Assembly (NCBI RefSeq): GCF_000008665.1
Contig: NC_000917.1
Location: 270,001 to 302,000, forward strand
Source: Archaeoglobus fulgidus DSM 4304
GTDB lineage: Archaea; Halobacteriota; Archaeoglobi; Archaeoglobales; Archaeoglobaceae
DNA length: 32,000 nucleotides
Reading direction: 5' to 3'
Positions within the stretch are counted from its first letter, which is position 1. Each line of letters opens with the position of its first letter. Positions 11,356 to 32,000 of this stretch are shown one piece after another. The position numbers and the translations under genes were made by a program. Below the pieces are notes generated by a model. It saw only the letters and a program-made list of their open reading frames with translations. It was not told the DNA's origin and did no database searches.

Positions 11356-12318
11356 TGTAGTATCCCTAAATTATTTCACTACCCACAACCAACTTCATGT
11401 GAGAAAACTAACGAACAAAAAGATCAGATGGATCATCAAACAACTCGAAAAGGGAACCCCAGTAAGAGAAATAGCAGCTGTGATGAGAGTAACACCAAGA
11501 AGGATCTACCAACTCAAAAAACAATACGAAGAAACAGGAGAAATTCCAGAACTCAAACAACCTGGAAGAAAGCCCAAGCCAATAGACAAAGAAACTGAGC
11601 AAATAATCCTGCAAGCCTACGAAAAATACAAGCTCAGCCCAGTTCCGCTGGAAAGGCTGATAGAGAGGGATTACGGCATCCACATCCCCCACAACACTAT
11701 ATACAGAATCTTGCTAAAACACGGTTTGGTGGAGGAGAATATGAATAAGAAAAAGCGGAGGAAATGGGTTCGTTATGAAAGAAAACACTCAATGAGTTTA
11801 TGGCAGGGAGACTGGAAAAAGCTTGGAGAGAATTGGATAATAGCCTTCATGGACGATGCTTCCCGCTTCATCACCTGCTATGGAGTATTTGAGAAGGCAA
11901 CGACTGAGAACACGATCAAAGTTCTCAGGAAAGGGTTCGCTGAATATGGAATTCCAGATGAAATATTGACGGATCACGGAACTCAGTTTGTGGCTGCGAA
12001 GAGCAGGGAGAGGGCTAAGCACAGATTTAAGAAATTCCTGGTTGAGAATGGTGTTAGGCATATTCTTGCCAGAATAAACCATCCTCAAACCAATGGAAAG
12101 ATTGAGAGGTTCTTTGGACTGATGGAGCAAAAAATTGGTCTTTTTGAATCACTGGATGAATTCGTTTACTGGTATAATTACGTTAAACCTCACATGAGCC
12201 TTAATTTTGAAGAGCTGGAGACTCCTTATCAGGCTTTTCTCAGGAAGCTGCCTGCTGAAAGGGTGTTTGAGTACGGGAGGTGGTTGATTGAGGAGTGAAA
12301 TTATTTCGGGATATCACA
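11356..12318 (+). mobile_element. Insertion sequence, 963 bp (ISA0963-type by length, from memory), rve/DDE transposase
   Basis: Ends TGTAGTATCCCTAAATTATTTCACT and (reverse complement) TGTGATATCCCGAAATAATTTCACT match at 21/25 by my count. Flanked by a 15-bp direct repeat. A single transposase ORF has its stop inside the right inverted repeat. Confidence 0.85.
11399..12298 (+). CDS. DDE (rve integrase-core) transposase, IS481/IS3-like
   Basis: 299 aa with a GTG start. N-terminal HTH (GTPVREIAAVMRVTPRRIYQL), WQGDW...D, LTDHGTQF and HPQTNGKIERFF, the classic rve-core signature. Confidence 0.9.
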   Translation: MRKLTNKKIRWIIKQLEKGTPVREIAAVMRVTPRRIYQLKKQYEETGEIPELKQPGRKPKPIDKETEQIILQAYEKYKLSPVPLERLIERDYGIHIPHNTIYRILLKHGLVEENMNKKKRRKWVRYERKHSMSLWQGDWKKLGENWIIAFMDDASRFITCYGVFEKATTENTIKVLRKGFAEYGIPDEILTDHGTQFVAAKSRERAKHRFKKFLVENGVRHILARINHPQTNGKIERFFGLMEQKIGLFESLDEFVYWYNYVKPHMSLNFEELETPYQAFLRKLPAERVFEYGRWLIEE

Positions 12319-16441: not shown

Positions 16442-17284
16442 CTACCTTTCTCTACGACGAGTTTGACAGATGGAGTGTTCCATTTCCGTGGAGATATCCT
16501 CAACTTCAGCGCGTATGTCCTGAACACTTGTATTATTCCTTTTCCTGAATTCCTCTAAATCACCAAATATGCTTTCCTCTCCAACAACGATTCTGGGCCC
16601 GATTACTGTTTTTTCTGGACATTCCTTTCTGATCACACATAAAGAATTGTAAAACTCAACTGATCGTATCGTAGCGAGCTCTGAGTCGTCAAAACTCAGG
16701 TTATACTTTTCAGCAAACTTCGAAAGTAACCACTTCCTCGATTTGCCCAATCTCCAATGCTCGTAGTTAATAACATCAATGAGGGTTTTGAAGAAATTAA
16801 TTGCTGAATAGTATTCAAACAAACCGCCGCCAAAGTTTTTCCAGTAACTGCAACACAGGTCTTCGACAATATATATCCCACCGTAATTCAACAGAGGGTA
16901 GTAATTTGCAAAGGCTCTAATTATATCGGACGATTTATGTGAGCCATCGTCTATTATTATGTCCAAACTGCTAACAATTTCTCTCACCCTTTTAGCAGTC
17001 AATAAATCACCTGCATCTCCTATCACGATCTTTATTCGCTCGTCGTCGTAAGTAAGCTCAGAGCATCTTTCATCTATGTCGCAGCCAATTATATTTTTTG
17101 CATTTGTAAAATATTTCGCCCAGATTTCAAGGCTCCCACCATTCTGAACTCCAATCTCCAAAATGTTTACTTCTTTATCCTTGTAGTCTGAAAATAACTG
17201 CTCATATATTTCTAAATAGGAAGTCCATTTATCCGTCACCTTTCCTTTATGCGTTCTAAATAACTCCACGAGTCTATAAGTCAT
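16442..17284 (-). CDS. Class I SAM-methyltransferase, CmcI / sugar O-methyltransferase-like
   Basis: 280 aa. HKGKVTDKWTSYLEIYE, ILEIGVQNGGSLEIW (motif I) and IIIDDGSH are typical of the CmcI-like family found in glycan clusters. First gene of the minus-strand operon. Confidence 0.75.
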   Translation of the reverse strand: MTYRLVELFRTHKGKVTDKWTSYLEIYEQLFSDYKDKEVNILEIGVQNGGSLEIWAKYFTNAKNIIGCDIDERCSELTYDDERIKIVIGDAGDLLTAKRVREIVSSLDIIIDDGSHKSSDIIRAFANYYPLLNYGGIYIVEDLCCSYWKNFGGGLFEYYSAINFFKTLIDVINYEHWRLGKSRKWLLSKFAEKYNLSFDDSELATIRSVEFYNSLCVIRKECPEKTVIGPRIVVGEESIFGDLEEFRKRNNTSVQDIRAEVEDISTEMEHSICQTRRRER

Positions 17285-17310
17285 AATTTTAGATTTCTGC
17301 AGAATTATGT

Positions 17311-17318
17311 AATATAAT
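17311..17318 (-). promoter_or_regulatory. Candidate TATA box (ATTATATT, minus strand) for the glycan-modification operon
   Basis: 26 nt from the ATG at 17284, in an AT-rich divergent intergenic region. Confidence 0.4.
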
Positions 17319-17361
17319 TTTTACTTACAACAAAGGTCGGCTAAAGATGCATTGCCAATAA

Positions 17362-17426
17362 GCGTGCTACAAAGTGCGCCAATCCAAGCCACGAAGTAGC
17401 GAATGCCAAATTTTAGAAATTGTGAT
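17362..17426 (+). repeat. Inter-module block, copy 0 (GCGTGCTACaAAGTG ... GCCACGAAGTAGCGAAtGCCAAATTTTAGAAATTGTGAT)
   Basis: The same block recurs after toxin 1 (18130-18199) and toxin 2 (18865-18961), and partly after module 5 (21005-21027). Confidence 0.7.
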
Positions 17427-17451
17427 TGAGCAATCAAAAAAGACTGCAGCC

Positions 17452-17464
17452 GAAACCTATTTCT
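17452..17464 (+). promoter_or_regulatory. Conserved GAAACCTATTTCT box (putative BRE/TATA) of module 1
   Basis: Identical 13-mer 21 nt upstream of the antitoxin ATG in all five modules. Confidence 0.5.
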
Positions 17465-17485
17465 TCTTTCATGCAAACTAATAAC

Positions 17486-17677
17486 ATGCCAAAAGTCATT
17501 GAAGCCATTTACGAAAACGGAGTGTTCAAGCCCCTCCAGAAAGTTGAACTCAGGGAGGGGGAGAAGGTAAAAGTCATTGTGGATCGGGGACTTACCCAGT
17601 TATTCGGGATGTTCCGACACAGGCGTAAGACGGACCTGGACGAAGATATGGATCTGATGATAACGGAGAGAGCATGA
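17486..17677 (+). CDS. AF2212-like (DUF104) antitoxin, module 1
   Basis: [30 protein letters not shown]... The ATG at 17486 is preferred to the TTG at 17426 because all paralogues start at MPK(I/V)IEA. The stop overlaps the toxin ATG (ATGA). Confidence 0.8.
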
Positions 17678-18126
17678 AGGTCTTTTTCGACACCTCTTTC
17701 TTTGTCGAGTATTTTAGAGGGAATGAGAATGCACGGAGGATTTACGAAGAACTGAAGAATTACGAATATTTTACATCGCTCAATGTGGTAGAGGAAACGA
17801 CCTATATACTCATGAAGTTTACCGCTTCTGATTTTGTGAAATTGGAGAAGCACTACGAAGTAATCAAGAAACTCAAGGAAGATTCAAATGTGTACGAGAA
17901 AAGTCTCAAAAATGCAAAGCTGTTTTACAGCTCAATTCTTCATGACGGATTCCAGATCCTGCCATTGCCTTCTTGGGACCTCGTTCTCGAGATTATGGAG
18001 CGATACAGACTCCTGCCAAACGATGCCCTAATAGCAGCAACCTGCAAGCATTATGGGATAAAGAAAATCGCAACCTTCGATGAGGATTTCAGGAGGGTTG
18101 ACTTTCTGCAGGTCGTAGAGCTTTGA
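17674..18126 (+). CDS. vapC: PIN-domain toxin (VapC-like), module 1
   Basis: 150 aa. [10 protein letters not shown] at the N-terminus; C-terminus [38 protein letters not shown], shared by all modules. Confidence 0.85.
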
Positions 18127-18129
18127 ACT

Positions 18130-18199
18130 GCGTGCTACGAAGTGAGCAAGCTGAAAGCTTGCCACGAAGTGGCGAACGCCAAATTTTAGAAATTGTGAT
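18130..18199 (+). repeat. Inter-module block, copy 1, with hairpin 18142-18165
   Basis: GCGTGCTACGAAGTG-aGCAAGCT-GAA-AGCTTGC-CACGAAGTGGCGAACGCCAAATTTTAGAAATTGTGAT. A 7-bp stem plus a GTG/CAC extension. Confidence 0.7.
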
Positions 18200-18223
18200 G
18201 GAGCAATCTAAAAGGCGGCAGCC

Positions 18224-18236
18224 GAAACCTATTTCT
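18224..18236 (+). promoter_or_regulatory. Conserved GAAACCTATTTCT box of module 2
   Basis: 21 nt upstream of the ATG at 18258. Confidence 0.5.
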
Positions 18237-18257
18237 AAACTGTAACCAAATAACAGT

Positions 18258-18452
18258 ATGCCCAAAATAATCGAAGCCATTTACGAGAACGGCGTGTTTA
18301 AGCCCCTCCAAAAGGTTGACTTGAAGGAGGGGGAAAAAGCCAAAATCGTTTTGGAATCCATCTCTGACAAGACGTTTGGTATTCTAAAGGCCAGCGAGAC
18401 GGAAATAAAAAAGGTTCTGGAGGAAATAGATGACTTCTGGGGTGTTTGTTGA
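18258..18452 (+). CDS. AF2212-like (DUF104) antitoxin, module 2
   Basis: [33 protein letters not shown]...; 64 aa; overlaps the toxin start by 23 nt. Confidence 0.85.
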
Positions 18453-18861
18453 TACAAATATTTTGGTAAGACACCTTGCTGGGGATCAAAAGGCAAAGAA
18501 ATTAATAGATCAAATTGAGATCGGGGAAATTCGCGGATATATTAACCAAATCGTGGTTTCGGAAGTTGTCTTTGTGTACATGAGACTGTTGACAAAATTA
18601 GACGCAAAAACGCTGAAGAGAAATCATGAGATTATCTGCAAAATTGACCTTGAGCCAGTTTACGAGATTCTAAGCATTTTTGTCGAATTACAATCTTCCA
18701 ATTTGATTACGGTTGAATCTCGGAAAATAATGTCGAGATACGGGCTTTTACCAAACGACGCGTTAATCGCTGCAACATGCAAGCATTATGGCATCAGGAA
18801 GATTGCAACTTTCGATGAAGATTTCAGGAGGGTTGACTTTCTGCAGGTCGTAGAGCTTTGA
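18430..18861 (+). CDS. vapC: PIN-domain toxin (VapC-like), module 2
   Basis: 143 aa. VFVDTNILV at the N-terminus; C-terminus [38 protein letters not shown]. The last 42 coding nt, the stop codon and the following 15 nt (60 nt in all) are identical to module 1. Confidence 0.85.
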
Positions 18862-18864
18862 ACT

Positions 18865-18961
18865 GCGTGCTACGAAGTGTGCAAACCGCCCATGAGACTT
18901 CTAACCCAAACAGGTTTGCCACGAAGTAGCGAACGCCAAATTAGGATTTTAGAGATTGTGA
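18865..18961 (+). repeat. Inter-module block, copy 2, with hairpin arms 18881-18887 / 18913-18919
   Basis: GCGTGCTACGAAGTG-tGCAAACC...GGTTTGC-CACGAAGTAGCGAACGCCAAATTaggATTTTAGAgATTGTGA. The stem differs from copy 1 by paired (compensatory) changes. Confidence 0.7.
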
Positions 18962-18989
18962 CCGGCAATCGAAAAGGAAAACATCAGCC

Positions 18990-19002
18990 GAAACCTATTT
19001 CT
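18990..19002 (+). promoter_or_regulatory. Conserved GAAACCTATTTCT box of module 3
   Basis: 21 nt upstream of the ATG at 19024. Confidence 0.5.
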
Positions 19003-19023
19003 AAACCTCAACCAAATATCAGT

Positions 19024-19218
19024 ATGCCCAAAATAATCGAAGCCATCTACGAAAACGGAGTTTTCAAGCCCCTCCAGAAGGTGAATTTCAGACCGGGATC
19101 CAAAGTAAGAATTGTGATTCAAGAAGACAAAAAAGAAATCCTGCGAAAATACAAGGGTGTTTTCGGAAAAGCAGAGGTGGAGGAGTTGAGAGAATACGAA
19201 GGGGAGGTAATGCTTTGA
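19024..19218 (+). CDS. AF2212-like (DUF104) antitoxin, module 3
   Basis: [33 protein letters not shown]... The ATG at 19024 is preferred to the GTG at 18877 of the ORF track. Confidence 0.8.
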
Positions 19219-19664
19219 TCGTTTTGGATACCAACATTTTCTACAACTTCCTCTTCGAAACGAACTTGACCGAAAAATCTGAAAGAATTCTCGAAACCTA
19301 CGAACCGCTGTTCTCGACTTTCACTGTTTGGAACGAGACGATTTACGTAGTTTCAAGAAAGCTTGCCGAGATAAAATTTGGAATAAAATCGTATGTAAAG
19401 TTCAGGAAATTAGTGGCAGAGGAAGGATACAGTTTCTGTGCCAAGGAGATAGAGGCTTTTGAAAGTGTAATTCGAGACTTAAACATAACAGTCTTGAGAG
19501 ACTATCAAAATCCGCGGGAAATATCGGAAATCATGAGCAAATTCAAATTACTTCCGAACGATGCCCTGATAGCTGCAACCTGCAGGCATTACGGGATAAG
19601 GAAGATCGCCACCTTCGATGAAGACTTCAGGCGAGTAGATTTTCTTGAGGTTGTTGAGCCTTAG
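19215..19664 (+). CDS. vapC: PIN-domain toxin (VapC-like), module 3
   Basis: 149 aa. TTG start overlapping the antitoxin TGA (TTGA). IVLDTNIF at the N-terminus; C-terminus [38 protein letters not shown]. Confidence 0.8.
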
Positions 19665-19666
19665 GG

Positions 19667-19679
19667 GAAACCTATTTCT
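19667..19679 (+). promoter_or_regulatory. Conserved GAAACCTATTTCT box of module 4
   Basis: Starts 2 nt after the module 3 stop; 21 nt upstream of the ATG at 19701. The long inter-module block is absent here. Confidence 0.5.
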
Positions 19680-19700
19680 ATTCTCAGACCCACAATCTAT

Positions 19701-19926
19701 ATGCCAAAAATCATCGAAGCTGTATATGAGAACGGAGTTGTTCAAGCCCCTTCAGAAGGTTGACTTGAAGGAGGGAGAAAAAATCCGACTTAGATTGGAT
19801 GAGAGGGGCTATATCGATCACAGTCTGATCAGAGAGCTTGAAGTTTTACTTAAAAACGCACCAAAAACAAAAATAGACCTCAGAGAACTGGAGAGGTTAC
19901 ACGATGTCGGAAAAATGCTTTATTGA
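19701..19926 (+). pseudogene. AF2212-like antitoxin, module 4, frameshifted after codon 13
   Basis: The ATG at 19701 gives [20 protein letters not shown]. One extra base in GGAGTTGTTCAAG (paralogues have GGAGT(G/T)TTCAAG) shifts the frame. The rest ([22 protein letters not shown]...) is readable only from the internal ATG at 19726. Confidence 0.7.
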
Positions 19927-20359
19927 TACCACAGTGATTCTCGAAGTCATCTTAAGGAAAGAGTTCAAGATTTTAGAGAAACTGTCGGAATACGTTCTCC
20001 ATACATCTGTAAACGTTCTTGAGGAGGCATCTTTCAAGATCATCTTTGTAAGCGTGGTTGACGAACTCTCCGTTAGCCGTGTCAACATTTTCAAAGTTAA
20101 GGATAGCTTTGAGAAAGGTATAGGTTCATCCCTAACTGAAACGAGGCTTCACGCACTAAATGTGCTTAAGGATGCTCTGAAAATCATAGAAATCGACGAA
20201 CACATTTTTGATATGGCCAAGAAAATAATTCTGGAGTATAAGCTCTTGCCAAACGACGCCTTAATAGCTGCCACCTGTAAGCATTACGGCATAAAGAAAA
20301 TTGCAACTTTCGATGAGGATTTCAGGAGGCTTGATTTTCTTGAAGTACTTGGACTCTAA
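19904..20359 (+). CDS. vapC: PIN-domain toxin (VapC-like), module 4
   Basis: 151 aa. CFIDTTVIL at the N-terminus; C-terminus [38 protein letters not shown]. Appears intact. Confidence 0.85.
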
Positions 20360-20387
20360 CTGAAAAATCAAAAAAGAAGCACCAGCC

Positions 20388-20400
20388 GAAACCTATTTCT
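20388..20400 (+). promoter_or_regulatory. Conserved GAAACCTATTTCT box of module 5
   Basis: 21 nt upstream of the ATG at 20422. Confidence 0.5.
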
Positions 20401-20421
20401 TCTTTCATGCAAATTAATGAC

Positions 20422-20619
20422 ATGCCAAAAGTAATAGAAGCCGTGTATGAGAATGGCGTGTTCAAACCGTTACAGAAGGTTGACTTGAAGGAGGGGGAAA
20501 AGGTTAAGGTGGAGCTAAAGGAGAGTGTTGTGGAGTCTGTGGCTGGAATTCTCAAAGTGAGCGATGAAAAGGTGAAAAAAGCCCTTGAAATGATTGAGTA
20601 TGGAGAAGATATTTATTGA
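20422..20619 (+). CDS. AF2212-like (DUF104) antitoxin, module 5
   Basis: [34 protein letters not shown]...; 65 aa from the ATG at 20422 (the ORF track starts 5 codons earlier). Confidence 0.8.
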
Positions 20620-21002
20620 CACGAATGTCATAATCGACCTGCTGAGAGGAAAGAAAAGCGTTGTTTCCTTCTTCCGGGATGTGGAAGATGGTGAAATACA
20701 CGGCTTGACTAACAAAAACGGTGTTTCTGGAAACTGTTTACGTTTACCTGATCCTTACAACGGATAAAGGTCCGCTAACCTTAAGAAAGAGGCCAGAGCT
20801 AATTGAGAATGTAAATCTGGAGCCAGTTCTGAGAGTTTTTGAGATTATCGACATGCTGCCAACTGACAGGATTGCCAAAGAATACATAGTTGAACTTATT
20901 GGAAAATTTGGATTGCTGCCAAACGATGCCTTAATCGCAGCAACCTGCAAGCACTATGAAGATTTCAGGCAAGTGGATTTCCTTGAAGTTGTAGAGCCTT
21001 GA
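20600..21002 (+). pseudogene. vapC: PIN-domain toxin, module 5, frameshifted and internally deleted
   Basis: The ATG at 20600 gives [17 protein letters not shown]...EIHGLTNKN, then the frame is lost in the A-run 20711-20720. ORF 20721..21002 continues VFLETVYVYL...[15 protein letters not shown]|[14 protein letters not shown]. That tail lacks the 9 codons GI(K/R)KIATFD present in all paralogues. Confidence 0.75.
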
Positions 21003-21004
21003 AT

Positions 21005-21027
21005 TCGTGCTAAGGAGTGTGCAAACC
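21005..21027 (+). repeat. Partial inter-module block closing the array (TCGTGCTAagGAGTGTGCAAACC)
   Basis: Matches the first part of the block at 18867-18887; only the left hairpin arm is present. Confidence 0.55.
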
Positions 21028-21050
21028 ATCCGGCAACGTAATCTCAGTGT

Positions 21051-22025
21051 CTATCGGAGAACCCCTGCTAACCTCGCAACCTTCAGAGCCTTGCCAAAAC
21101 CAAGCCCCTCGATGTAGTCTTCAACTGCCTTAAACCTCACTTTTTGCTGAACTTCCCTCCTCTTCTCCAGAAACTTCCTGAGCTCTCTGATAGCGTCGAT
21201 TTTTGACTTCAAAATTGCAAAATTGCCCCTCAGGCAGAAGAACAGCATCGAGCTGAAATTTCTCAGGATGAAGTAAGGAAACTCCCTCAGAAGTAAATCC
21301 CTGGGCACGTTCTTAACCACACTCCACACCCAGTTCCTGCTGTTGTAATACACAGAGAAATCCGATAAGAAGCCCGTAGATGCTGAGTGTAGGTGATAAG
21401 CTATGGCCGTTGGAACGTACAGAATCTTCCAACCTCTAATCAATGCTCTTAAACTCAAATCCACATCCTCGTTATACATGAAGTAGTCCTCATCAAACAA
21501 ACCCACGTCCTCGAAAAGGCTTCTGCGATACATTGCAGCCGCAGCGCATGCTCCGGCAACGTAGCAAGGCTCGTCAAACTGCCCCTCATCCTTCTCCAAA
21601 AACCCCCTCTCCATCACAGCCAGACCTCTGTGTATTGCATGTCCCGCCGAGTTTATTCGCCCGTCCTCAAACAGTATTTTGGATGCAAAGATTCCCGCCC
21701 TTAAATCATCTGCAGCCTTCAGCATCTCTTCTGCCCAGTTTCTTTCCAGAAAGGCATCGTTGTTTACGAGGGCAACGAATTTAGTGTTTGCCATTTCAAT
21801 TCCCTGATTGGCAGCCTTGGCAAACCCCAAATTCTCCTCATTCCGAATAACCTCAAACCGAGAGTAATAATCCTCAAAATTCCTCAAAATATCTCTGGAT
21901 CCATCTGTTGAACCGTTGTCTATCACCAGAACTCTGAGTTTTCTGTAAGTCTGGTTTATTATGGAATTCAGGCATTCTTTCAGGTATTTTTCCCCGTTGT
22001 AGTTAACCACTATGAAGGTCAGCAT
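21051..22025 (-). CDS. GT2 glycosyltransferase (rhamnosyltransferase-like)
   Basis: 324 aa. FIVVNYNGEKYLKECLNSIINQTY, VIDNGSTDGS, LVNNDAF, and a DVDLSLR-type second half. Overlaps the upstream GT2 gene by 7 nt. Confidence 0.85.
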   Translation of the reverse strand: MLTFIVVNYNGEKYLKECLNSIINQTYRKLRVLVIDNGSTDGSRDILRNFEDYYSRFEVIRNEENLGFAKAANQGIEMANTKFVALVNNDAFLERNWAEEMLKAADDLRAGIFASKILFEDGRINSAGHAIHRGLAVMERGFLEKDEGQFDEPCYVAGACAAAAMYRRSLFEDVGLFDEDYFMYNEDVDLSLRALIRGWKILYVPTAIAYHLHSASTGFLSDFSVYYNSRNWVWSVVKNVPRDLLLREFPYFILRNFSSMLFFCLRGNFAILKSKIDAIRELRKFLEKRREVQQKVRFKAVEDYIEGLGFGKALKVARLAGVLR

Positions 22026-22879
22026 CTTCTCCCTTTCCTACTTAAAATTCCGTGAACCACCCCTTTAAGGTATTGGATGATGTCACCTTTCCTCTTCAGC
22101 CTCACCAAATAGTATAAAACCCTCAGCGGCTCGGTAATCAGCGCATAGAAAAACATCGCTTTTCCAGCTCTTCTCGCCACTATCAGCCAGTTTCTGGCAG
22201 TATAGTAAAGATAATGGGGGCTGAACAGTCCCAGGGAGGCAGATACCTTGTGTCTCACCACAGCTTTGCATACGGCGAGCCTGTAACCCTTCTTCCTCGC
22301 TCTTATGCACCACTCCGTCTCCTCGTGCATCATGAAAAGCTCCTCGTCAAAGAAGCCCACGTCCTTCAAAGCCGAGCTTCTTATCAGCATCGCACATCCA
22401 ACAAGCCCAAAAGGAGAGTCGAAACTTATCTCAACCTCAACCATCTTGTTCTTCAAATGCAAAACAGGATATCCAAGAAAAATGCGTGTGCCAGCAGACC
22501 ATATTCTTTCGTCGCCGTAGTACTTCACCACAGGCTGACAGGCTGCAATTGTCTCATCTTCTTCCATCTCTGAGACCATTCTTTCTACTGCATCCCTCTC
22601 AAAAACCACGTCGTTGTTGGAAATCAGCACGTAATCGGCTTTGTCAATAACAGCTCTAATGCCAGCATTGCAACCTCCCGCATACCCCCTGTTCTCACCG
22701 AGTTCTAGCATTTCAACCTGAGGATACTTCCTTCTGAGCTTCTCTATCACCTCTCTCTCCGATCCGTTGTCCACCACAACTACCCTGCACGGATATGTCT
22801 GGTTCAAGAGGGAGTCTATGCATTCAGCGGTATCATCGAAATTGTTGTAGTTCACAACGATTGCGTAAACAGTCCTCAT
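22019..22879 (-). CDS. GT2 glycosyltransferase (rhamnosyltransferase-like)
   Basis: 286 aa. AIVVNYNNFDDTAECIDSLLNQTY, VVDNGSE, ISNNDVVF, MHEETEWCIRARKKGY. The start overlaps the rfbC stop. Confidence 0.85.
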   Translation of the reverse strand: MRTVYAIVVNYNNFDDTAECIDSLLNQTYPCRVVVVDNGSEREVIEKLRRKYPQVEMLELGENRGYAGGCNAGIRAVIDKADYVLISNNDVVFERDAVERMVSEMEEDETIAACQPVVKYYGDERIWSAGTRIFLGYPVLHLKNKMVEVEISFDSPFGLVGCAMLIRSSALKDVGFFDEELFMMHEETEWCIRARKKGYRLAVCKAVVRHKVSASLGLFSPHYLYYTARNWLIVARRAGKAMFFYALITEPLRVLYYLVRLKRKGDIIQYLKGVVHGILSRKGRRC

Positions 22880-23373
22880 TTATGCGGAGGATAAAACCAG
22901 TCCCACGGCTTTCCGCAGCGAGGGTCGTCTTCCCTGCCGTTTATCTTTGCAGGCACAATTGTGGAGTCGTTCCAGGGCCTCCTCACCTCGTCGGGATTCT
23001 CGTAGTCATACAGTCTGCTGACGAAATACACCAGCACTGCAGGCTCCACCCCAATCGCCTTGAAGCCGTGCCAGTAATGTCCCGGCACCCTCACAACCTG
23101 AAGGTTTTTGCCCGTCGAAACTATTTCTGCCAGCTCCTGAGTTTCATCATCGTAGGCACATATCTTTATCGCCCCGCCTATGCAGACGAAGTAGTCCACC
23201 TGCCCCCTCTCATGCTTGTGCCAAGCCCTCACGATTCCCGGATAGGTCACGGACATGTTCGCCTGAAGGATTTCATCCTCAAAAACATCCCAGTCTCTTC
23301 GCATTATCTCCGTGAAGAAACCCCTCTCGTCTGCGAAGGTTTTGAGCGGTTTAACAACGATACCTGGCAGCAT
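22876..23373 (-). CDS. rfbC: dTDP-4-dehydrorhamnose 3,5-epimerase (short cupin form)
   Basis: FADERGFFTEI, AWHKHERGQVDYF, PGHYWHGFKAIG. The ATG at 23373, preceded by GGTGGT, is preferred to the TTG at 23388 of the ORF track. Confidence 0.85.
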   Translation of the reverse strand: MLPGIVVKPLKTFADERGFFTEIMRRDWDVFEDEILQANMSVTYPGIVRAWHKHERGQVDYFVCIGGAIKICAYDDETQELAEIVSTGKNLQVVRVPGHYWHGFKAIGVEPAVLVYFVSRLYDYENPDEVRRPWNDSTIVPAKINGREDDPRCGKPWDWFYPPHK

Positions 23374-23384
23374 ACTACCACCAA

Positions 23385-24242
23385 TCAAACCAAACCCTTC
23401 TCAGCTAAATAATCTCTTAAAGCTTCCCTCCAGTGCCTCATCTTAATGCCAATTCTTTCGAGTTTGTAGTTTTGCAGGGCAGAGAAAGCTGGCCTTCTCG
23501 CCAATCTGTTAAGCTCGCTCGACTTTATTGGCTGAATTTCCACATCCCAGTCGAGAATTTCGAATATTGCCTTCGTAAACTCAAACCACGAGCAGTATCC
23601 GTCGTTTACCATGTGGTAAATTCCGTAGTCGGGGCGGAGTTTGAGAAACTCTCTAACAGCGAGGGCCACGTCCTTGGTATAGGTGGGGCTCATAAACTGG
23701 TCCGCAACAATCCTCAGCTCCTGCCCCTTTCTCGCCATATCCACCACCCAGTTTACGAAGTTACCGCCCTTTCCGCTCGCCCCGGCCTTCCCGTATAGAC
23801 TTGCAACCCTGATCACGTAGTGTTTTTCCGAGTAGTTTTTCGTGAGAATTTCTCCGGCATACTTGCTCGCTCCGTAAACGTTTATAGGATTTGGCTTATC
23901 TGTCTCGACATAGGGCTCTCCCTTCTCACCATCGAAAACGTAGTCTGTACTGATGTAAATGTTAACCGCATCAATTTCCGAAGAGATTCTGGCCACATTA
24001 AGCGCCCCGATGGCGTTGACCGCAAAGGCCTTTTCCGCATGATTCTCCGCATCATCAACTCTGACATAGGCAGCGGTGTTTATGATAACGTCGGGGTGGA
24101 TGTCTCTCAGCACTTCAAGGCTTTCAGACACTGCAACATCAACATCCTCATGAGTAAGCGGATAAACTGTGAACTCCTCCTTAAGAACGTCAACAAGGTC
24201 CGTTCCAAGCTGGCCTTTGGCTCCTATTACCGCTACCTTCAT
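23385..24242 (-). CDS. rfbD: dTDP-4-dehydrorhamnose reductase
   Basis: 285 aa. MKVAVIGAKGQLG Rossmann start, STDYVFDG, YGASKYAGE (YxxxK). Sits between rfbB and rfbC. Confidence 0.9.
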   Translation of the reverse strand: MKVAVIGAKGQLGTDLVDVLKEEFTVYPLTHEDVDVAVSESLEVLRDIHPDVIINTAAYVRVDDAENHAEKAFAVNAIGALNVARISSEIDAVNIYISTDYVFDGEKGEPYVETDKPNPINVYGASKYAGEILTKNYSEKHYVIRVASLYGKAGASGKGGNFVNWVVDMARKGQELRIVADQFMSPTYTKDVALAVREFLKLRPDYGIYHMVNDGYCSWFEFTKAIFEILDWDVEIQPIKSSELNRLARRPAFSALQNYKLERIGIKMRHWREALRDYLAEKGLV

Positions 24243-24243
24243 T

Positions 24244-25242
24244 CTACCATCTCAGCTTCCATGGCGTGGGATGCAAAATCCTCTCATCAGCCAGAGGCCT
24301 CCACCACCACTCGTTTTGCAGGTACCACTCAACAGTCCTCCTTATCCCTTCTTCAAAGCTAATCTTTGGCCTCCATTTCAGCTCTCTCATTATCTTCCAC
24401 GAGTCGAGGGAGTAGCGAACGTCATGTCCTGGTCTATCCTCAACATACTCAATCAGGCTCTCGTCTTTCCCCATGATTTCCAGAATCGTTTTTACAATCT
24501 CAAGGTTCGTTCTTTCCTCTCCGCTTGAAATGTTGTAAACTTCTCTTCTCTCCCCCTTCTCCATAACCTCCCAGACTGCTCTACAGTGGTCCTCGACGTA
24601 AATCCAGTCCCTCACGTTCATTCCGGTTCCGTAGATTGGGACGCTCAGATTCATTTTTGCCCTTATTATGGTCTTCGGAATCAGTTTTTCCGGGAATTGA
24701 TAGGGCCCATAGTTGTTCGTGCACCTTGTAATGGATGCGTTTAGGTTGTAAGTCCTTGCATAGCCGAGGACCAGCATGTCTGCAGCAGCTTTACTTGCTG
24801 AGTAGGGTGAGGAAGGCATCAACCCGTCCTTTTCCGTAAAGGAGCCTTTTTCAATGTCCCCGTAAACCTCATCCGTGCTGACGTGCACCAATCTTACCTC
24901 AGGATTGCACTTTCTCACTGCTTCGAGAATCGTATACACTCCAAGAAAGTTACTCTCGATGAAGGCATAGGGACTGGATATACTCCTGTCCACATGGCTC
25001 TCTGCAGCGAAGTTCACCACCGCATCTACCTTCTTAATCAGATCAGAGACGAGTTCATAGTCGTTTATATCCCCTTTGATGAAGCTGTATCTCTCATCCT
25101 CTGCCAAGTCTTTCAGATTTTCCGGATTGGAGCCGTACTTCAGAGCATCGAGGTTCAGAATCTCTACCTGGTGGTGAGCAAGAGCGTACCTAACGAAGTT
25201 GGAGCCGATGAACCCCATTCCTCCCGTAACAAGAATTCTCAT
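24244..25242 (-). CDS. rfbB: dTDP-glucose 4,6-dehydratase
   Basis: MRILVTGGMGFIGSNF, STDEVYG, YSASKAAADM. The ATG at 25242 with an upstream GAGGTG is preferred to the TTG at 25254. Confidence 0.9.
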   Translation of the reverse strand: MRILVTGGMGFIGSNFVRYALAHHQVEILNLDALKYGSNPENLKDLAEDERYSFIKGDINDYELVSDLIKKVDAVVNFAAESHVDRSISSPYAFIESNFLGVYTILEAVRKCNPEVRLVHVSTDEVYGDIEKGSFTEKDGLMPSSPYSASKAAADMLVLGYARTYNLNASITRCTNNYGPYQFPEKLIPKTIIRAKMNLSVPIYGTGMNVRDWIYVEDHCRAVWEVMEKGERREVYNISSGEERTNLEIVKTILEIMGKDESLIEYVEDRPGHDVRYSLDSWKIMRELKWRPKISFEEGIRRTVEWYLQNEWWWRPLADERILHPTPWKLRW

Positions 25243-25250
25243 CTTCCACC

Positions 25251-26309
25251 TCAAAGCAGGATCTCGGAGTAATCCCCAATGGTGAATCTTAGGAACCTCT
25301 TTCTGTCGTTCTTTCTGATTCTGACTTTCCTCCCAATGAGACTCTCCTCAATTCTCTCCACACCCTCGATAATTGACTCGCTGAGAACTATGCAGTATTC
25401 AAGCGAGCTGTTTTTAATGACCGTTCTTTCACCAACGCTCGTGTAGGGCCCGATGAACGAGTTCTCGATTATGCAGTCTTCCCCGATGACCGCTGGCCCC
25501 CTTACGATGCTGTTAGTTATTTTTGCCCCTTCTCCAACCTCAACTCTTCCCTCAATTTGCGACGCCAAAACCTCTCCCTTTACACTCCTTTTTGCCCTCT
25601 CATCGAGAATCGTTGCGTTCACCTTCAGTATGTCCTCTGCCTTGCCTGTGTCGAACCACCAACCCTTCAGTTTAGCATATCCCACATTGTAACCGTTTTC
25701 AATCATTTTTTGTAGCGTGTCGGTGATTTCAAGTTCTCCTCTCCAGCTCGGTTTTAGGTCTTTGATTATGTCAAAAACAACTGGTTTGAACATATATACA
25801 CCAATTACCGCGTAGTTGCTTGGAGGTTCTTTTGGCTTCTCAATGAGTCCGACCAGTCTCTCGCCCTCAAACTTGGCAACACCAAAGGCTCTTGGATCCT
25901 CAACCTCCTTGAGAAGTATGAAGGCGTCAAAATCTTCCTCGTCAAATCTCTTAACGTATTCCTTTATACCATCCTGAATCAGGTTGTCGCCGAGATAAAC
26001 TACAAACTTTTCATCACCGACGAAGTCTTTGGCAAGATAGACTGCATGAGCAATACCGAGTGGCTTACCCTGATGGATGTATGTAATCTTGCATCCGAAC
26101 CTCGAACCATCTCCGTAGTGCTCTTCCACCATTTCTGGATAGGTCTCCCCCAAAATTATGGCTACCTCTTTGATTCCTGCACCAATCATGTCCTCAAGGC
26201 AATACTGGGAAACCGGCTTGTTGGCTACGGGAATCAGCTGCTTTGGCCCCGTAAAGGTTAGTGGTCTTAATCGGGTGCCGGCACCACCGTGAAGCAGTAC
26301 GCCCTTCAC
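25251..26309 (-). CDS. rfbA: Glucose-1-phosphate thymidylyltransferase (long form with C-terminal left-handed beta-helix)
   Basis: 352 aa with a GTG start. LHGGAGTRLRPLTFTGPKQLIPVANKP nucleotidyltransferase signature; hexapeptide-like repeats in the C-terminal third. Confidence 0.9.
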   Translation of the reverse strand: MKGVLLHGGAGTRLRPLTFTGPKQLIPVANKPVSQYCLEDMIGAGIKEVAIILGETYPEMVEEHYGDGSRFGCKITYIHQGKPLGIAHAVYLAKDFVGDEKFVVYLGDNLIQDGIKEYVKRFDEEDFDAFILLKEVEDPRAFGVAKFEGERLVGLIEKPKEPPSNYAVIGVYMFKPVVFDIIKDLKPSWRGELEITDTLQKMIENGYNVGYAKLKGWWFDTGKAEDILKVNATILDERAKRSVKGEVLASQIEGRVEVGEGAKITNSIVRGPAVIGEDCIIENSFIGPYTSVGERTVIKNSSLEYCIVLSESIIEGVERIEESLIGRKVRIRKNDRKRFLRFTIGDYSEILL

Positions 26310-26328
26310 GATAAAAGAGGGAAATTGA

Positions 26329-26336
26329 TTTATAAA
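26329..26336 (-). promoter_or_regulatory. Candidate TATA box (TTTATAAA) for the rfbA-B-D-C-GT2-GT2 operon
   Basis: Palindromic TTTATAAA 19 nt from the GTG at 26309, in the 45-nt gap after the manC remnant. Confidence 0.4.
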
Positions 26337-26354
26337 ATATTGTCGGTTTTAACT

Positions 26355-27696
26355 CTAACCTCTCCCAAAATCGTCCTCGAACCTTTCTATGTCATCCTCC
26401 TCCAGATAATCTCCAATCTGCACCTCAATTATCTCAAGAGGGATTTTTCCGGGGTTCTCTATTCTGTGCAGAGAGCCGGCAGGGACAAAAGTGCTCTCTC
26501 TCTTCCTCAGCAGTATCTCTTTCCCATCAACAACAATCCTTGCAGTACCGTTCACGACAATCCAGTGCTCGCTTCTGTGATAGTGTCTCTGCAGGCTAAT
26601 TCTCTTGCCGGGTTTGACTGTAATTCGCTTAATCTTGTAGTTGTTCTCCTCCAGAACTGTGTAGCCCCCCATGGTCTGAAGGCGGTTCTGTGGATAATTG
26701 CCCTCTTGTCGTTTTTAGTTTTGAGGATGTTATAGACTTCTTTAACCTTCTCGGCGCTTCCCCTCTTTGCCACAAGCATTGCATCGTCAGTGTCTATTAT
26801 AAGAAGGTTCTCCACGTCAATGAGCGTGGTTAACCTCTCCGCAACCACCAAATTTCCCTTTGAGTTGACCGCAATAACTTCACTTCCAGCCACTGCATTA
26901 CTGCTCTCATCTTTATGCAGGTACTCATAAATAGCATCGAAACTGCCCATATCACTCCATTCTACATCAATTGGCACCACAGCTACTCTCTCCGATTTTT
27001 CTACAATGCCATAGTCAATCGAAATTTCCGGAACTTCAGCATATGCTCCCACACCTTTTTCGAAAATGCGCAGCATTTCCGGAGCGTGCCTTTTTAACTC
27101 CTCCTTAAAAAGAGTACTGTCAAAAAGAAACATGCCGCTGTTCCATAGGTAGCCCTCCTTTATGAGCCTCTGCCATCCTTAAATCTGGCTTCTCATGGAA
27201 ATCCTCTACCCTGAACGCGCCCTCAAGGTCATTACCCGGCTTGATGTACCCGTAACCAGAATGTGCTTTTGTCGGCCTAATGCCAAAGGTAACCAGAAAT
27301 CTATCGCTGAACTTTTCTGCAATTCTGAACGCTTTGATGCACTCCTCATTGACCTCTACGATATGGTCAGATGGCAGAACAGCGAAATTTCCGTCTCCTG
27401 CTTTCATCATGGCATAGCAGATTGCTGGTAATGTATTTTTGGCTTCTGGCTCAAGCAGTATGTTCTCTTCTGGAATTTTTACCCCCTAAATCGTCAAGAT
27501 CATCTGAAACTCTGAATCTGTACTCTTCGTTAGTAACCACGTATATATCACTTGCATCGGAAAATATCAAGGCTCTTCTGACAGTCTTCTGAAAAAGAGA
27601 TTCTCCAAATAATCGTTAAAACTGCTTGGGCATGGCTTCCCTGCTAAGCGGCCAGAGACGTGTCCCCTTCCCGCCTGCAAGTATTATGGTTTTCAT
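26355..27696 (-). pseudogene. manC: Mannose-1-phosphate guanylyltransferase / mannose-6-phosphate isomerase (bifunctional type II), multiply disrupted
   Basis: The pieces MKTIILAGGKGTRLWPLSREAMPKQF*, RLFGESLFQKTV..., ILLEPEAKNTLPAICYA..., EGYLWNSGMFLF... and RPWGGYTVLEE...RHYHRSEHWIVVNG (cupin) cover a whole manC. Reading through requires crossing one in-frame TAA (27616-27618) and three frame changes. Confidence 0.85.
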
Positions 27697-27780
27697 TGTA
27701 TCTGGTTTATTGTTCTGAACATAATTTTTTCTGATGTTGTATCTGAGTAAAAATGAAAAACCACCTTGTAAACTTATAAC

Positions 27781-28854
27781 GTGGAAGTTGTGTTCATTTA
27801 CGACGCAGTTTACCCTTGGGTAAAGGGCGGGGTTGAAAAAAGGATTTACGAGATAGGTAAAAGGCTCTCCCATTGGGGATTCAGAGTTAAATGGCTCTGT
27901 GCCGGGTGGTGGGGCAAAGAGCAGAGAAAATTAGAAGGGATTGAGCTGATACCCGTTTGCGGTCCCTTGAGGCTTTACTCGGGAGAGAGGAGAAGTATCA
28001 GCTCAGCTCTTTCATTTGCGTTGAGTCTGGCAAAGAACGCAAAAATCAATGCAGACGTTCTGGACTGCCAGGTTTTCCCATATCTTTCGGTTTTTCCCTT
28101 CTTCAGGAGAAGGAATTTGGTGCTCACGTGGCACGAGTATTGGGGGGACTACTGGAAGGAGTATCTGGGATATGCGGGATTATTTGGCAGGCAAATTGAG
28201 AGAATTGTTGCTTCACTCGACAGAAAGATGGTTGCGGTATCTGAAACAACCGCCCGAAACCTCCTGAATCTTGGTGTGAAAAATGTTGAGGTAATTCCCA
28301 ACGGAATCGACTTTGAATTTATAAGGAGGGTCGAAGCGTCTGAAGAATCACTGGATGTGGTTTTTGCAGGCAGGCTGATAAAGGAGAAAGGTGCTGATTT
28401 GCTAATCAAAGCGATGAAGCTCCTCCCTGATTACAGTTGCCTTATTGTAGGTGAGGGGCCGGAAAAAGCCAGTTTAATCAAGTCAGCTCCCGAAAATGTC
28501 AAGTTTGCTGGCTTTATGAACTATGGGTATCTGATAGCGACGCTGAAAAGCGCAAAGGTTTTTGTTCTTCCCTCCAGAAGAGAGGGTTTCGGAATTGCAG
28601 CCCTCGAAGCTAACGCCTGCGGTCTGCCTGTTGTTACTATAAACCACCCAATGAATGCTGTGGTGGAGATTGCGAGAGAAACCGGGTTCATAGCCTCACC
28701 TTCTCCCCAAGACATTGCCGAAAAAATTAAAATTGCGATGGAGTCAAGGAAAAAAATGAGGAGAAGATGTGTGGATTACGCCAGAAAGTTCGACTGGAGC
28801 GTTATAGCAAAAAAGATGGCTGATTTCTATGATAACTGTGGTTCTTCCGACTAA
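27781..28854 (+). CDS. GT4 (GT-B fold) glycosyltransferase
   Basis: 357 aa with a GTG start. YPWVKGGVEKRIYE N-terminus; LPSRREGFGIAALEANACGLPVV (E-x7-E region). Confidence 0.85.
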   Translation: MEVVFIYDAVYPWVKGGVEKRIYEIGKRLSHWGFRVKWLCAGWWGKEQRKLEGIELIPVCGPLRLYSGERRSISSALSFALSLAKNAKINADVLDCQVFPYLSVFPFFRRRNLVLTWHEYWGDYWKEYLGYAGLFGRQIERIVASLDRKMVAVSETTARNLLNLGVKNVEVIPNGIDFEFIRRVEASEESLDVVFAGRLIKEKGADLLIKAMKLLPDYSCLIVGEGPEKASLIKSAPENVKFAGFMNYGYLIATLKSAKVFVLPSRREGFGIAALEANACGLPVVTINHPMNAVVEIARETGFIASPSPQDIAEKIKIAMESRKKMRRRCVDYARKFDWSVIAKKMADFYDNCGSSD

Positions 28855-29944
28855 AAACGAGGAGAAGGCGATTGAGGAAATAGTGAAAAAATGTTTGGTG
28901 GTTGGGGTTAAGGAGATAATCGTTGTAGATGACTCTACCGACTCAACGCCGGAAATTGCGGAAAAGCTTGGATGCAGGGTGATAAAGAACGTCAAAGGTT
29001 ACGGCAATGCCTACTTGGAGGGTTTAAAGCATGCAAGTGGTGATATCATTGTTCTGATGGATGCAGACGGAACCTACGACCCAGCTGAGATACCTAAACT
29101 TGTTGAGCCAATTTTAAGGGATGAGGCGGATGTTGTTATCGGCAGCAGGTTTAAAGGCAAAATAATGCCCGGCGCTATGCCCTGGCACCACAAATATTTG
29201 GGAAACCCCCTCCTCACAAAGCTAACAAACTTCCTGTTCGGGACGGGATTCAGCGATGTCCACAGCGGTTTTAGGGCAATAAAAAAAAGTTCACTCTCCC
29301 AACTCGACCTCAAATGTCCGGGAATGGAGTTTGCAACGGAATTTGTTCTCAAAACAACGATGAGCGGTTTGAGACTGCTGGAGGTTCCCGTAACATACTA
29401 CCCCCGGAAGGGAGATAGCAAGCTGAGGTCGTTCAGGGATGGTTGGAGGCATCTCAGGCTAATTCTCGCCACCTCTCCAGGCCATGTTTTTCTAATCCCA
29501 TCCATATTTCTGACTTTAATCGGCGTTGCAGTCATGACCTACGTCCTGACCTTTGAACCGATAAGGACACATACTCTGATTCTCGGAACACTTTTAACTC
29601 TCATTGGTATCCAGACCTTCTTTTTCGGCGTTTCGGGAAAGCTGTACTCAAGGCAGATTGGATTCAGGAGAGACGATAGAATAACGTCTTTTTTCAGCAG
29701 ATACTCGACCATCGAGGGGTTAATGCTTGCTGGGTTAGCAATTCTCGCACTCGGCTTTTATCTCGGTTACAGAATAGTTTCATTCTGGCTTGCTAAAGGA
29801 TTTGGGTCTTTGGACGAATTTAATGATGCAATTCTTTCCATGTTGCTCATTTTTTCAGGATTTCAGATAATCCTGAGTTCTCTTTTCCTCAGCATGTTTC
29901 TGCTGAACGAGAGCAATGGAGAAAAAGTAATATTGAAATCATAA
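28829..29944 (+). CDS. GT2 polyprenyl/dolichyl-phosphate glycosyltransferase (Dpm1/GtrB-like) with a C-terminal membrane domain
   Basis: VVLPTKNEE, VVDDSTDST, LMDADGTYD (DxD), followed by about four hydrophobic helices (VFLIPSIFLTLIGVAVMTYVL etc.). Confidence 0.8.
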   Translation: MITVVLPTKNEEKAIEEIVKKCLVVGVKEIIVVDDSTDSTPEIAEKLGCRVIKNVKGYGNAYLEGLKHASGDIIVLMDADGTYDPAEIPKLVEPILRDEADVVIGSRFKGKIMPGAMPWHHKYLGNPLLTKLTNFLFGTGFSDVHSGFRAIKKSSLSQLDLKCPGMEFATEFVLKTTMSGLRLLEVPVTYYPRKGDSKLRSFRDGWRHLRLILATSPGHVFLIPSIFLTLIGVAVMTYVLTFEPIRTHTLILGTLLTLIGIQTFFFGVSGKLYSRQIGFRRDDRITSFFSRYSTIEGLMLAGLAILALGFYLGYRIVSFWLAKGFGSLDEFNDAILSMLLIFSGFQIILSSLFLSMFLLNESNGEKVILKS

Positions 29945-29954
29945 TACTGCCTTC

Positions 29955-31730: not shown

Positions 31731-32000
31731 TACCTGATTTTCGATGCACACTCCCTGCAGAAGCTAACCGGCTTTCTGTCAACATCCTGAACTGAGTTTG
31801 AAAACCGCATAACGCAGTTGTTACTGCAGTGCTTCAAACCAAGAACGTGGCCGATCTCGTGCACAGCCTCCTTGACAACCCTCTCCCTGTAAAGCTCGCT
31901 GTCCGCTGTTGTGAGGCGGAAAACTGATAGCACGGCCCTCGCCCCTCCGAGTTCTGCCTCGCCAAAAACGAAGTTCATTCCTTTGGCGTAGATATCCTTA
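31727..32000 (-). CDS. amzA: Archaemetzincin (zinc metalloprotease), C-terminal part; 5' end beyond the window
   Basis: [20 protein letters not shown]...CRECASK is the HExxHxxGxxHCxxxxCxM...CxxC signature. The frame stays open upstream of the ATG at 31978 to base 32000 ([15 protein letters not shown]). Confidence 0.85.

Follow-up and report, generated by a model that had tools for sequence, protein, structure and literature searches.

How can five neighbouring toxin-antitoxin pairs be nearly the same at their ends and hardly alignable in between? The question is raised by a stretch of the Archaeoglobus fulgidus DSM 4304 chromosome (NC_000917.1, positions 270,001–302,000), referred to here as the window (32,000 nt; all coordinates below are positions in it), in which the region from 17.3 to 21.0 kb holds five head-to-tail modules (M1–M5), all on the + strand, each composed of a short antitoxin gene (A1–A5) that overlaps a toxin gene of ~150 codons (T1–T5). 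The account that we hold to be probable as a whole is that of an array of VapBC-class operons in which the gene ends are kept alike by constraint, the interiors are old cassette types, and recombination acts at the junctions between modules.

The family to which these genes belong has been described before. COG2880 (DUF104) and PIN-domain proteins were predicted to form toxin-antitoxin pairs, and A. fulgidus was found to encode 12 COG2880 paralogues, some of them clustered with adjacent PIN genes, which was interpreted as tandem duplication (Makarova, Wolf and Koonin, 2009; PMC2701414). The array studied here belongs to the same family in the same organism. In that paper and in the literature searched, no description was found of a mosaic of junctions and cassettes, the age of the cassette types, the promoter motif or stem-loop, pseudogenised members, or recombination at the junctions. 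The family, its expansion and the A. fulgidus clusters are hence known, and what is newly documented is the mosaic and recombination architecture.

A tandem array of VapBC-class operons

An initial annotation of the window had described five head-to-tail AF2212-like/PIN modules, and this description is borne out by the gene coordinates and by matches to the Pfam families PF01954 (AF2212-like) and PF01850 (PIN). The first three modules are intact. M1 is formed by A1 (17486–17677; 63 amino acids (aa); PF01954 E 1.8e-20) and the PIN/VapC toxin T1 (17674–18126; 150 aa; PF01850 E 4.7e-25), M2 by A2 (18258–18452; 64 aa; E 1.4e-22) and T2 (18430–18861; 143 aa; E 1.3e-25), and M3 by A3 (19024–19218; 64 aa; E 4.7e-25) and T3 (19215–19664; 149 aa, with a TTG start; E 4.4e-25). 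In M4, a frameshifted A4 (19701–19926) precedes an intact T4 (19904–20359; 151 aa; E 3.7e-20), and in M5 an intact A5 (20422–20619; 65 aa; E 3.3e-22) precedes a pseudogene of T5 (20600–21002).

All intact antitoxins match PF01954 at E 1e-20 to 5e-25, with 73–88 bits against a cut-off of 21.6, which places them in the AF2212-like (COG2880, DUF104) family, and A3 has in addition a weak match to the Pfam family MazE_antitoxin. The intact toxins all match PF01850 at E 4e-20 to 1e-25, and each of the ten array genes gave a Pfam match. T1 is 100% identical to the NCBI protein 'type II toxin-antitoxin system VapC family toxin [Archaeoglobus fulgidus]'. The acidic active site of VapBC toxins is present, as D6, E41, D117 and D136 are invariant across 88 toxin homologues; T5 does not have the complete set, D136 being deleted. 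The gene order is likewise that of VapBC operons, in which an antitoxin gene lies upstream on the same strand and overlaps or abuts the toxin gene: here the overlap amounts to 4 nt in M1 and M3, 20 nt in M5, and 23 nt in M2 and M4. Searches of NCBIfam with the toxins and antitoxins gave no matches, and T1, A1, T2 and T4 had no match to the PADLOC-DB defence-system models at E up to 0.01. Judged by sequence-level criteria, the five modules are paralogous type II operons of the VapBC class, of the COG2880/AF2212-like plus PIN kind. The array is also present in the finished genome of A. fulgidus DSM 8774 (CP006577), and same-strand arrays of this family are frequent in many archaeal metagenome-assembled genomes (MAGs).

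Damage to two of the genes had been missed by the initial annotation, which is corrected here for A4 as a frameshifted gene and for T5 as a pseudogene. In A4, an additional T at 19738 (GGAGTtGTTC) ends the reading frame after 20 codons, and an N-truncated open reading frame (ORF) of 66 aa is left, which starts at an internal ATG. Among the A. fulgidus-type sequences compared, which are ~99% identical (loci from other genomes are designated by L numbers), DSM 8774 and most other strains have an undamaged A4 of 74 aa; the +T frameshift is shared by L072 and is missing from L071, which is otherwise identical to the window and to L072 there. In T5, which has a T2-like head, one nucleotide is inserted into an A-run near 20714, and an in-frame deletion of 27 nt takes out GI(K/R)KIATFD including the fourth catalytic Asp; the gene is disrupted in other strains too, by different lesions. 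In L071, a 26-nt deletion in A2 (L071 5380–5450, equivalent to window 18357–18382) lies next to an intact T2. The A4 and A2 lesions, which are independent of each other, could be sequencing errors, could be subject to repair by conversion, or could reflect tolerated loss. In the window, both partners are intact in M1–M3, the intact toxin of M4 is accompanied by a damaged antitoxin, and the intact antitoxin of M5 by a dead toxin, so that A5 would effectively be an orphan antitoxin. Over 31 nt in the head of the T5 pseudogene (20653–20683), L070, L074 and L078 differ from the window by ten single-nucleotide polymorphisms (SNPs); the variant bases show no consistent match to any paralogue of the array, which points to relaxed decay or to a donor at another place in the genome.

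Conserved gene ends

Within the array, the first 28 codons of the antitoxins (the antitoxin head) are 75–93% identical at the amino acid level, and the last 38 codons of the toxins (the toxin tail) 83–97%. The shared ends that had been noticed initially are therefore real, as a DNA alignment of the modules and protein alignments also show, with the restriction that the toxin tail as it was quoted in full occurs in only four of the five toxins. By the method of Nei and Gojobori, the toxin tails have nonsynonymous divergences (dN) of 0.01–0.10 and synonymous divergences (dS) from 1.15 to saturated, and the antitoxin heads a dN of 0.05–0.19 and a dS from 1.2 to saturated. The fraction of identical codons between array tails is 0.41–0.62, and most synonymous sites differ. 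Such a combination of low dN with dS near saturation indicates that the ends are old and under purifying selection. A function at the nucleotide level was considered as the cause of toxin-tail conservation and was ruled out, as the synonymous sites are near saturation.

The same constraint is seen across the family. In a set of 83 toxins and 114 antitoxins from ~60 archaeal genomes, with lineages including Archaeoglobales, Methanophagales, Methanoperedens, Bathyarchaeia, Thermoproteales, Desulfurococcales and one Heimdallarchaeota MAG, the columns of the toxin tail and the antitoxin head are 80–99% conserved and the interiors variable, and the same end residues are kept across distant archaeal lineages with differing codons. 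When the 38-residue tail was used in an HMMER scan with filters off, 241 clusters (at 50% identity) were identified among 1.84 billion representatives. Protein-level constraint on the tails, as had been proposed from the synonymous changes between them, is thus supported both by the divergence values and by the family-wide conservation of columns.

It could be argued that the ends are alike mainly through homogenising gene conversion, that is by concerted evolution, with protein constraint only secondary. Conversion tracts are directly visible in the array (see below), and the ends are more alike within than between genomes, also at the amino acid level (0.92 and 0.87 vs 0.81). However, most synonymous sites differ between the array tails (dS at least 1.15), whose proteins are nevertheless still 83–97% identical, distant archaeal lineages conserve the same residues using different codons, and significant tracts are found only in the M1/M2 tails and the A2/A5 heads. 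We consider it improbable that conversion is the main cause; the conserved ends are, as far as divergence and conservation can tell, ancient and held alike by purifying selection, not by recent conversion alone.

A sixth, distant member of the family, which had been placed at 886–1532 on the – strand, is real as well: it consists of A6 (1332–1532) and T6 (886–1341), with Pfam E-values of 2e-20 and 1.9e-20, and, with 61–68% identity, its head is related to those of the array, whereas its tail (29–38%) is not.

Interiors and the age of the cassette types

Between the ends, the antitoxin tails share 9–42% and the toxin heads 13–30% amino acid identity within the array, in agreement with the initial impression that the interiors are barely alignable, and dN is about 1 with dS saturated. 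These interiors had been called hypervariable and had been taken as a sign of diversification in situ, and this part of the initial annotation is contradicted by the comparison with other genomes. Each toxin head has nearer relatives in other genomes than inside its own array, with head identities to orthologues elsewhere of 49–60% for the T1 cassette type, 40–48% for T2, 44–59% for T3 and 50–69% for T4. These orthologues are found in Archaeoglobales, Methanophagales, Bathyarchaeia and other MAGs. Between orthologues, the toxin heads have a dN of 0.22–0.59 and a dS that is mostly saturated; a dN so far below saturated dS argues for purifying rather than diversifying selection on the heads, and no sign of positive selection on the interiors was seen in the orthologue dN/dS comparison.

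The antitoxin tail tracks the toxin head. When two toxin heads are similar with at least 80 bits, 89–97% of the paired antitoxin tails are similar, and when head similarity is below 40 bits, 0% of them are. This is consistent with a co-evolving interface, although physical linkage by itself would yield the same result. The interior block, i.e., antitoxin tail plus toxin head, would represent one of several ancient, co-inherited specificity types.

A different origin of the array would be that modules were recently duplicated in tandem at the locus and that their interface then came under rapid diversifying selection, which produced insulated paralogues in situ. The modules are indeed adjacent, lie on one strand and have common ends, the A. 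fulgidus clusters have been interpreted as tandem duplications (PMC2701414), and the heads of T2 and T5 (30% identical) and the tails of A2 and A5 (42%) could stem from an older local duplicate. Yet even the conserved ends have diverged at synonymous sites almost to saturation, the relatives of the cassettes in other genomes, including those of other archaeal classes and phyla, are 40–69% identical compared to 13–30% inside their own array, dN between orthologues is far below dS, and the interiors are the least polymorphic part among strains. Recent duplication with diversification is largely refuted by these observations, and we regard it as very unlikely. The interiors are instead read, from their orthologues and divergences, as old, purified and co-inherited types that have been set side by side, and not as hypervariable in situ.

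Recombination at the junctions

Exchange between modules is directly recorded in the array. A tract of 60 nt at 18085–18144, which covers the end of the T1 tail, the stop codon and the left arm of the hairpin that follows, is identical to 18820–18879 after T2, so that the identity reported between M1 and M2 is exact. In a Sawyer-type run test, the M1/M2 tails have 36 concordant polymorphic sites in a run, which was reached in 0 of 5000 permutations (P<2e-4), and the same test gave a global P of 0.0024 for the A2/A5 heads.

Comparison among strains points in the same direction, and together with the run test it substantiates the ongoing exchange that had been suspected from the 60-nt tract. DSM 8774 differs from the window by six clustered changes in the IG1/A2-head stretch, all six of which match M3, and the T2-tail differences of L078 match M1 in seven of seven cases; similar patches that match a paralogue distinguish the A3 and A5 heads between strains. 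Junctions hold polymorphic sites at five times the density of intact cassettes (32/1225 vs 9/1834; Fisher P 1e-6). As to module number, which the initial annotation had suggested comparing, M2 is absent in the MAGs L070 and L074, where the M1-type sequence switches to the post-M2 type inside the identical 60-nt tract. In L074, moreover, a divergent junction turns identical inside the A1 head, and the genes of the left flank are different.

On a larger scale, 611 triples were compared; in 447 of them a same-array paralogue has a closer tail than the head-orthologue has, and 124 show the reverse. Two Archaeoglobales MAGs (L010 and L014), whose left flanks are 89% identical, have the cassette orders a-b-c-d-e and d-a-c-x-y-e; their shared cassette types (L010 8190–12160 vs L014 8200–16060) are reordered, with extra and missing cassettes besides. 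Antitoxin fragments that consist of the head only are present in several arrays (L015, L012, L005). The proposal that the conserved flanks act as homology arms for cassette shuffling is strengthened by the MAGs without M2, the breakpoint in the A1 head of L074, and the permuted orders of L010 and L014.

In the mechanism that we propose, the junction block is made up of the toxin tail (helix alpha6, strand beta4, helix alpha7 and strand beta5), a terminator-like hairpin, a BRE/TATA-like promoter and the antitoxin head, each of which is conserved by strong, family-wide purifying selection. Since such blocks measure ~340 nt and recur every 0.65–0.8 kb, ordinary homologous recombination acts on them, and the outcome, visible in the sequences, is short conversion tracts on the one hand, and on the other hand unequal or ectopic crossovers by which whole cassettes are deleted, added or reordered. 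The conserved junction block, as these patterns indicate, doubles as a recombination substrate.

Alternatively, the array could be a selected cassette-exchange system, in which the junction exists in order to promote swaps of specificity cassettes between arrays and genomes, with possible benefits such as matching viral anti-toxins or excluding competing elements, by analogy with orphan CdiA-CT/CdiI or Rhs arrays. The wide occurrence of same-strand arrays in archaeal MAGs, the permuted cassette order at the syntenic site of L010 and L014, insertions and deletions that are bounded by junctions, and the head-only antitoxin fragments in arrays such as L015 and L012 would all fit. However, the array has neither a recombinase nor a dedicated site associated with it, the conservation of every junction piece is accounted for by its ordinary function, the observed events are those of general homologous recombination on any dispersed 300-nt repeat, known defence-system models are not matched, and there is no evidence of benefit. 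Selection for exchange as such therefore seems to us improbable, and recombination on blocks that are constrained for other reasons is preferred.

Several observations weigh against the account of constrained ends, old cassettes and recombining junctions. L070 and L074, which lack M2, are MAGs with many frameshifts, and an assembler could have jumped the identical 60-nt tract; T2 was not found on other contigs of the L070 and L074 samples, although a collapse may nonetheless have occurred. The fraction of identical codons is 0.54 for another contig of the same genome and 0.58 for the same locus, compared to 0.42 for other genomes, so that the within-genome excess could partly be due to shared codon usage, and the triples of the incongruence test are not mutually independent. 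In addition, an antitoxin is broken beside an intact toxin twice, by the +T in A4 (window and L072) and by the 26-nt deletion in A2 (L071). Such pairs, which bear on the mutual insulation suggested initially, speak against a strict dependence on the cognate antitoxin or against a strong toxicity, unless an antitoxin product retains its function after truncation or other antitoxins compensate.

Promoter-like motif and stem-loop of the junctions

The exact 13-mer GAAACCTATTTCT precedes all five antitoxin genes, each time 21 nt ahead of the ATG, and none of 100 shuffles gave as many matches. In M1 the motif, which resembles a B recognition element (BRE) followed by a TATA box, is located at 17452–17464; the other copies are at 18224–18236 (M2), 18990–19002 (M3), 19667–19679 (M4) and 20388–20400 (M5), all on the + strand. 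The spacer upstream of A4 is only 36 nt long and has no stem-loop. The motif is not limited to this array: among 94 family members of other genomes, 43 have it at a fixed offset of –36 to –34. When 94 upstream regions of the family are anchored on the ATG, positions –36 to –24 give the consensus cgAAAccttTTT, and a Shine-Dalgarno motif is absent. The exact 13-mer GAAACCTATTTCT was also observed in the Archaeoglobales loci L005, L006, L010, L012, L013, L014, L023, L024, L025 and L037.

The 13-mer is probably a BRE/TATA core promoter ~27 nt before the ATG, and the mRNA is probably leaderless, so that each module would be read from its own BRE/TATA-like core promoter. An antitoxin operator may overlap with the 13-mer or share it. 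A role of the 13-mer as antitoxin operator only was considered separately and is disfavoured by the fixed offset of –35 and by the CGAAA plus T-rich form found across the family.

The second element of the junction is a stem-loop with the conserved form GCGUGCUAC-GAA-GUG...CAC-GAA-GUAGC, in which a symmetric GAA/GAA internal loop is strictly conserved. On the + strand, it is found with a T-tract after T1 (18129–18192; minimum free energy (MFE) –26.3 kcal/mol, z –3.65) and after T2 (18864–18949; MFE –27.3 kcal/mol, z –2.73), and a degenerate copy upstream of M1 (17361–17419) matches the element and folds weakly (z –0.72); the M3-M4 and M4-M5 spacers lack it. The inner stem varies between copies with complementarity kept, as in the post-T2 copy, where GCAAACC/GGUUUGC co-varies with the M1 copy. 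Six copies of equal length (64 nt) have 19 consensus pairs, three of which show compensatory double changes; this set alone is usable, since RNAalifold on 12 hairpin copies of unequal length loses the inner stem to misalignment and shows no covariation. The element seen after T1 is also conserved, compensatory changes included, among other Archaeoglobales. Further copies were observed in L010 (7915–7975), L014 (five), L018 (two), L020 (10432–10495), L035 (~559–640) and L037 (three). A permissive scan of 17000–21300 against Rfam gave no match.

With its T-tract, the stem-loop looks like a terminator, an interpretation that leaves the invariant internal loop unexplained. In the first three spacers, the stem-loop and T-tract after the stop codon of the upstream toxin would act as such. 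The annotation of the locus accordingly gains flags for a conserved archaeal promoter motif and for an uncatalogued stem-loop.

Structure and presumed interface

The AlphaFold2 (AF2) model of T1 has a predicted local distance difference test (pLDDT) score of 96.1 and the element order b1-a1-a2-b2-a3-a4-a4'-b3-a5, followed by the conserved tail a6-b4-a7-b5. In Foldseek, its best matches are VapC structures, including that of Rickettsia felis VapBC2 (3ZVK; TM 0.60–0.68, identity 17%), and a search of the PDB with the T1 sequence gave chance-level matches only. For the antitoxins, residues 1–53 of A2 match PDB 2NWT (AF2212) with E 4.9e-14, the first 33 residues being near-identical, and the AF2212/COG2880 antitoxin has been placed in the AbrB DNA-binding superfamily (PMC2701414). 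The PF01954 matches, the one weak MazE/AbrB match (that of A3, E 0.0011), the pattern of a conserved head and a variable tail, and the covariation of tail and toxin head would fit an antitoxin of this type. By homology, its N-terminal AbrB-like head would dimerise and bind DNA, and its C-terminal tail would wrap the PIN RNase and block it.

In R. felis VapBC2, the antitoxin touches helices alpha2 and alpha4 of the toxin and occupies the active-site groove, and the toxin dimerises via a3 and a5 (PMC3326315). The helices equivalent to a2, a3, a4 and a5 are all located within the variable head of the T1 model, and the conserved toxin tail contains two catalytic Asp and core strands. By homology, the surfaces for partner binding and for self-association are both predicted to lie in the variable head. 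The idea that the variable part forms the cognate interface, which had been offered from general knowledge of toxin-antitoxin systems, remains plausible in the light of the tail-head tracking and of the VapBC2 contact helices, which map to the variable T1 head (PMC3326315).

Comparison with other systems and implications

The likeness to R. felis VapBC2 (3ZVK), whose antitoxin is an AbrB-type swapped hairpin, consists in the toxin fold and in the two-part plan of the antitoxin; in VapBC2, the N-terminal part is a beta domain that binds DNA, and the contacts with the toxin are made by the C-terminal part (PMC3326315). It differs in that identity is only 17% and that the AF2212-like head is a distinct Pfam family; DNA binding and the contact surface are predictions for the archaeal proteins.

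The VapBC set of Mycobacterium tuberculosis resembles the A. fulgidus family in having many PIN/VapB paralogues per genome and raises the same question of cross-talk. Mycobacterial VapBC loci are mostly dispersed and are not known to form head-to-tail arrays with a common 340-nt junction. In the A. fulgidus array, as opposed to the M. tuberculosis set, the ends are near-identical in protein and the interiors about 20% identical.

The CdiA-CT/CdiI and Rhs orphan arrays likewise have alternating conserved and variable blocks with units of a variable toxin and its protector, and there too recombination in a conserved stretch changes the cassette that is present. In contrast to these systems, the toxins of the array are complete intracellular PIN RNases (143–151 aa) with promoter-like motifs of their own, and the conserved block reaches from the last part of one operon into the first part of the following one. 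No large delivery protein of the Cdi/Rhs type is found near the array, which is flanked by a methyltransferase and glycosyltransferases. An integron-type integrase is not adjacent either; the sole ORF with an rve domain (11399–12298) is a transposase of the insertion sequence (IS) type 5 kb away. Integron cassettes are promoterless, whereas the array modules each have a promoter-like motif. The likeness to integrons or to Cdi/Rhs arrays is one of layout only.

A broader reading is put forward tentatively and seems doubtful to us: across thermophilic archaea, the family would consist of arrays that exchange, lose and reorder specificity cassettes via a shared junction, the modules of an array or genome would be transcriptionally cross-regulated as one network with type-specific neutralisation, and orphan antitoxins such as A5 would be anti-addiction elements. 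Cross-regulation would follow, in that reading, from the near-identical antitoxin heads and the promoter motif in all modules. If the main account of the array holds, the family offers a natural test bed for the specificity of paralogous toxin-antitoxin pairs, as pairs in one genome would have essentially the same catalytic core, promoter and DNA-binding head and differ in the presumed contact surfaces alone, with orthologous types in other genomes available for comparison. On the same main account, functionally constrained gene ends can double as recombination arms, by which a chromosomal toxin-antitoxin cluster acts like a cassette array without a dedicated recombinase.

Genomic surroundings

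The neighbours of the array are a rhamnosyl-O-methyltransferase-like gene and, on the other side, glycosyltransferases, and the array lies on the margin of a low-GC island of surface-glycan biosynthesis; GC content is 0.35–0.44 in window positions 1–21000 (the upstream region and the array) and 0.44–0.49 in 21000–32000. The left flank of the array differs among strains (L070, L074). Genes of the island include those for a UDP-glucose dehydrogenase, a sulfotransferase, glycosyltransferases and rhamnose functions, as well as AglB/STT3 at 29955–31730, and the transposase at 11399–12298, which has a helix-turn-helix and an integrase core of the rve type, has its insertion site amid the genes for glycosylation. 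A second cluster that resembles toxin-antitoxin genes is located at 886–4395 and contains, besides the divergent AF2212-like/PIN pair, a short PIN protein with a 73-aa upstream ORF (1738–2273), a PIN_3 protein (2884–3357), and a pair of HEPN and nucleotidyltransferase proteins (3717–4395). Finally, two adjacent short ORFs on the – strand (26552–27410), encoding 193 aa (ManC beta-helix) and 96 aa (a fragment of NTP_transferase), look like one split sugar-nucleotidyltransferase gene.

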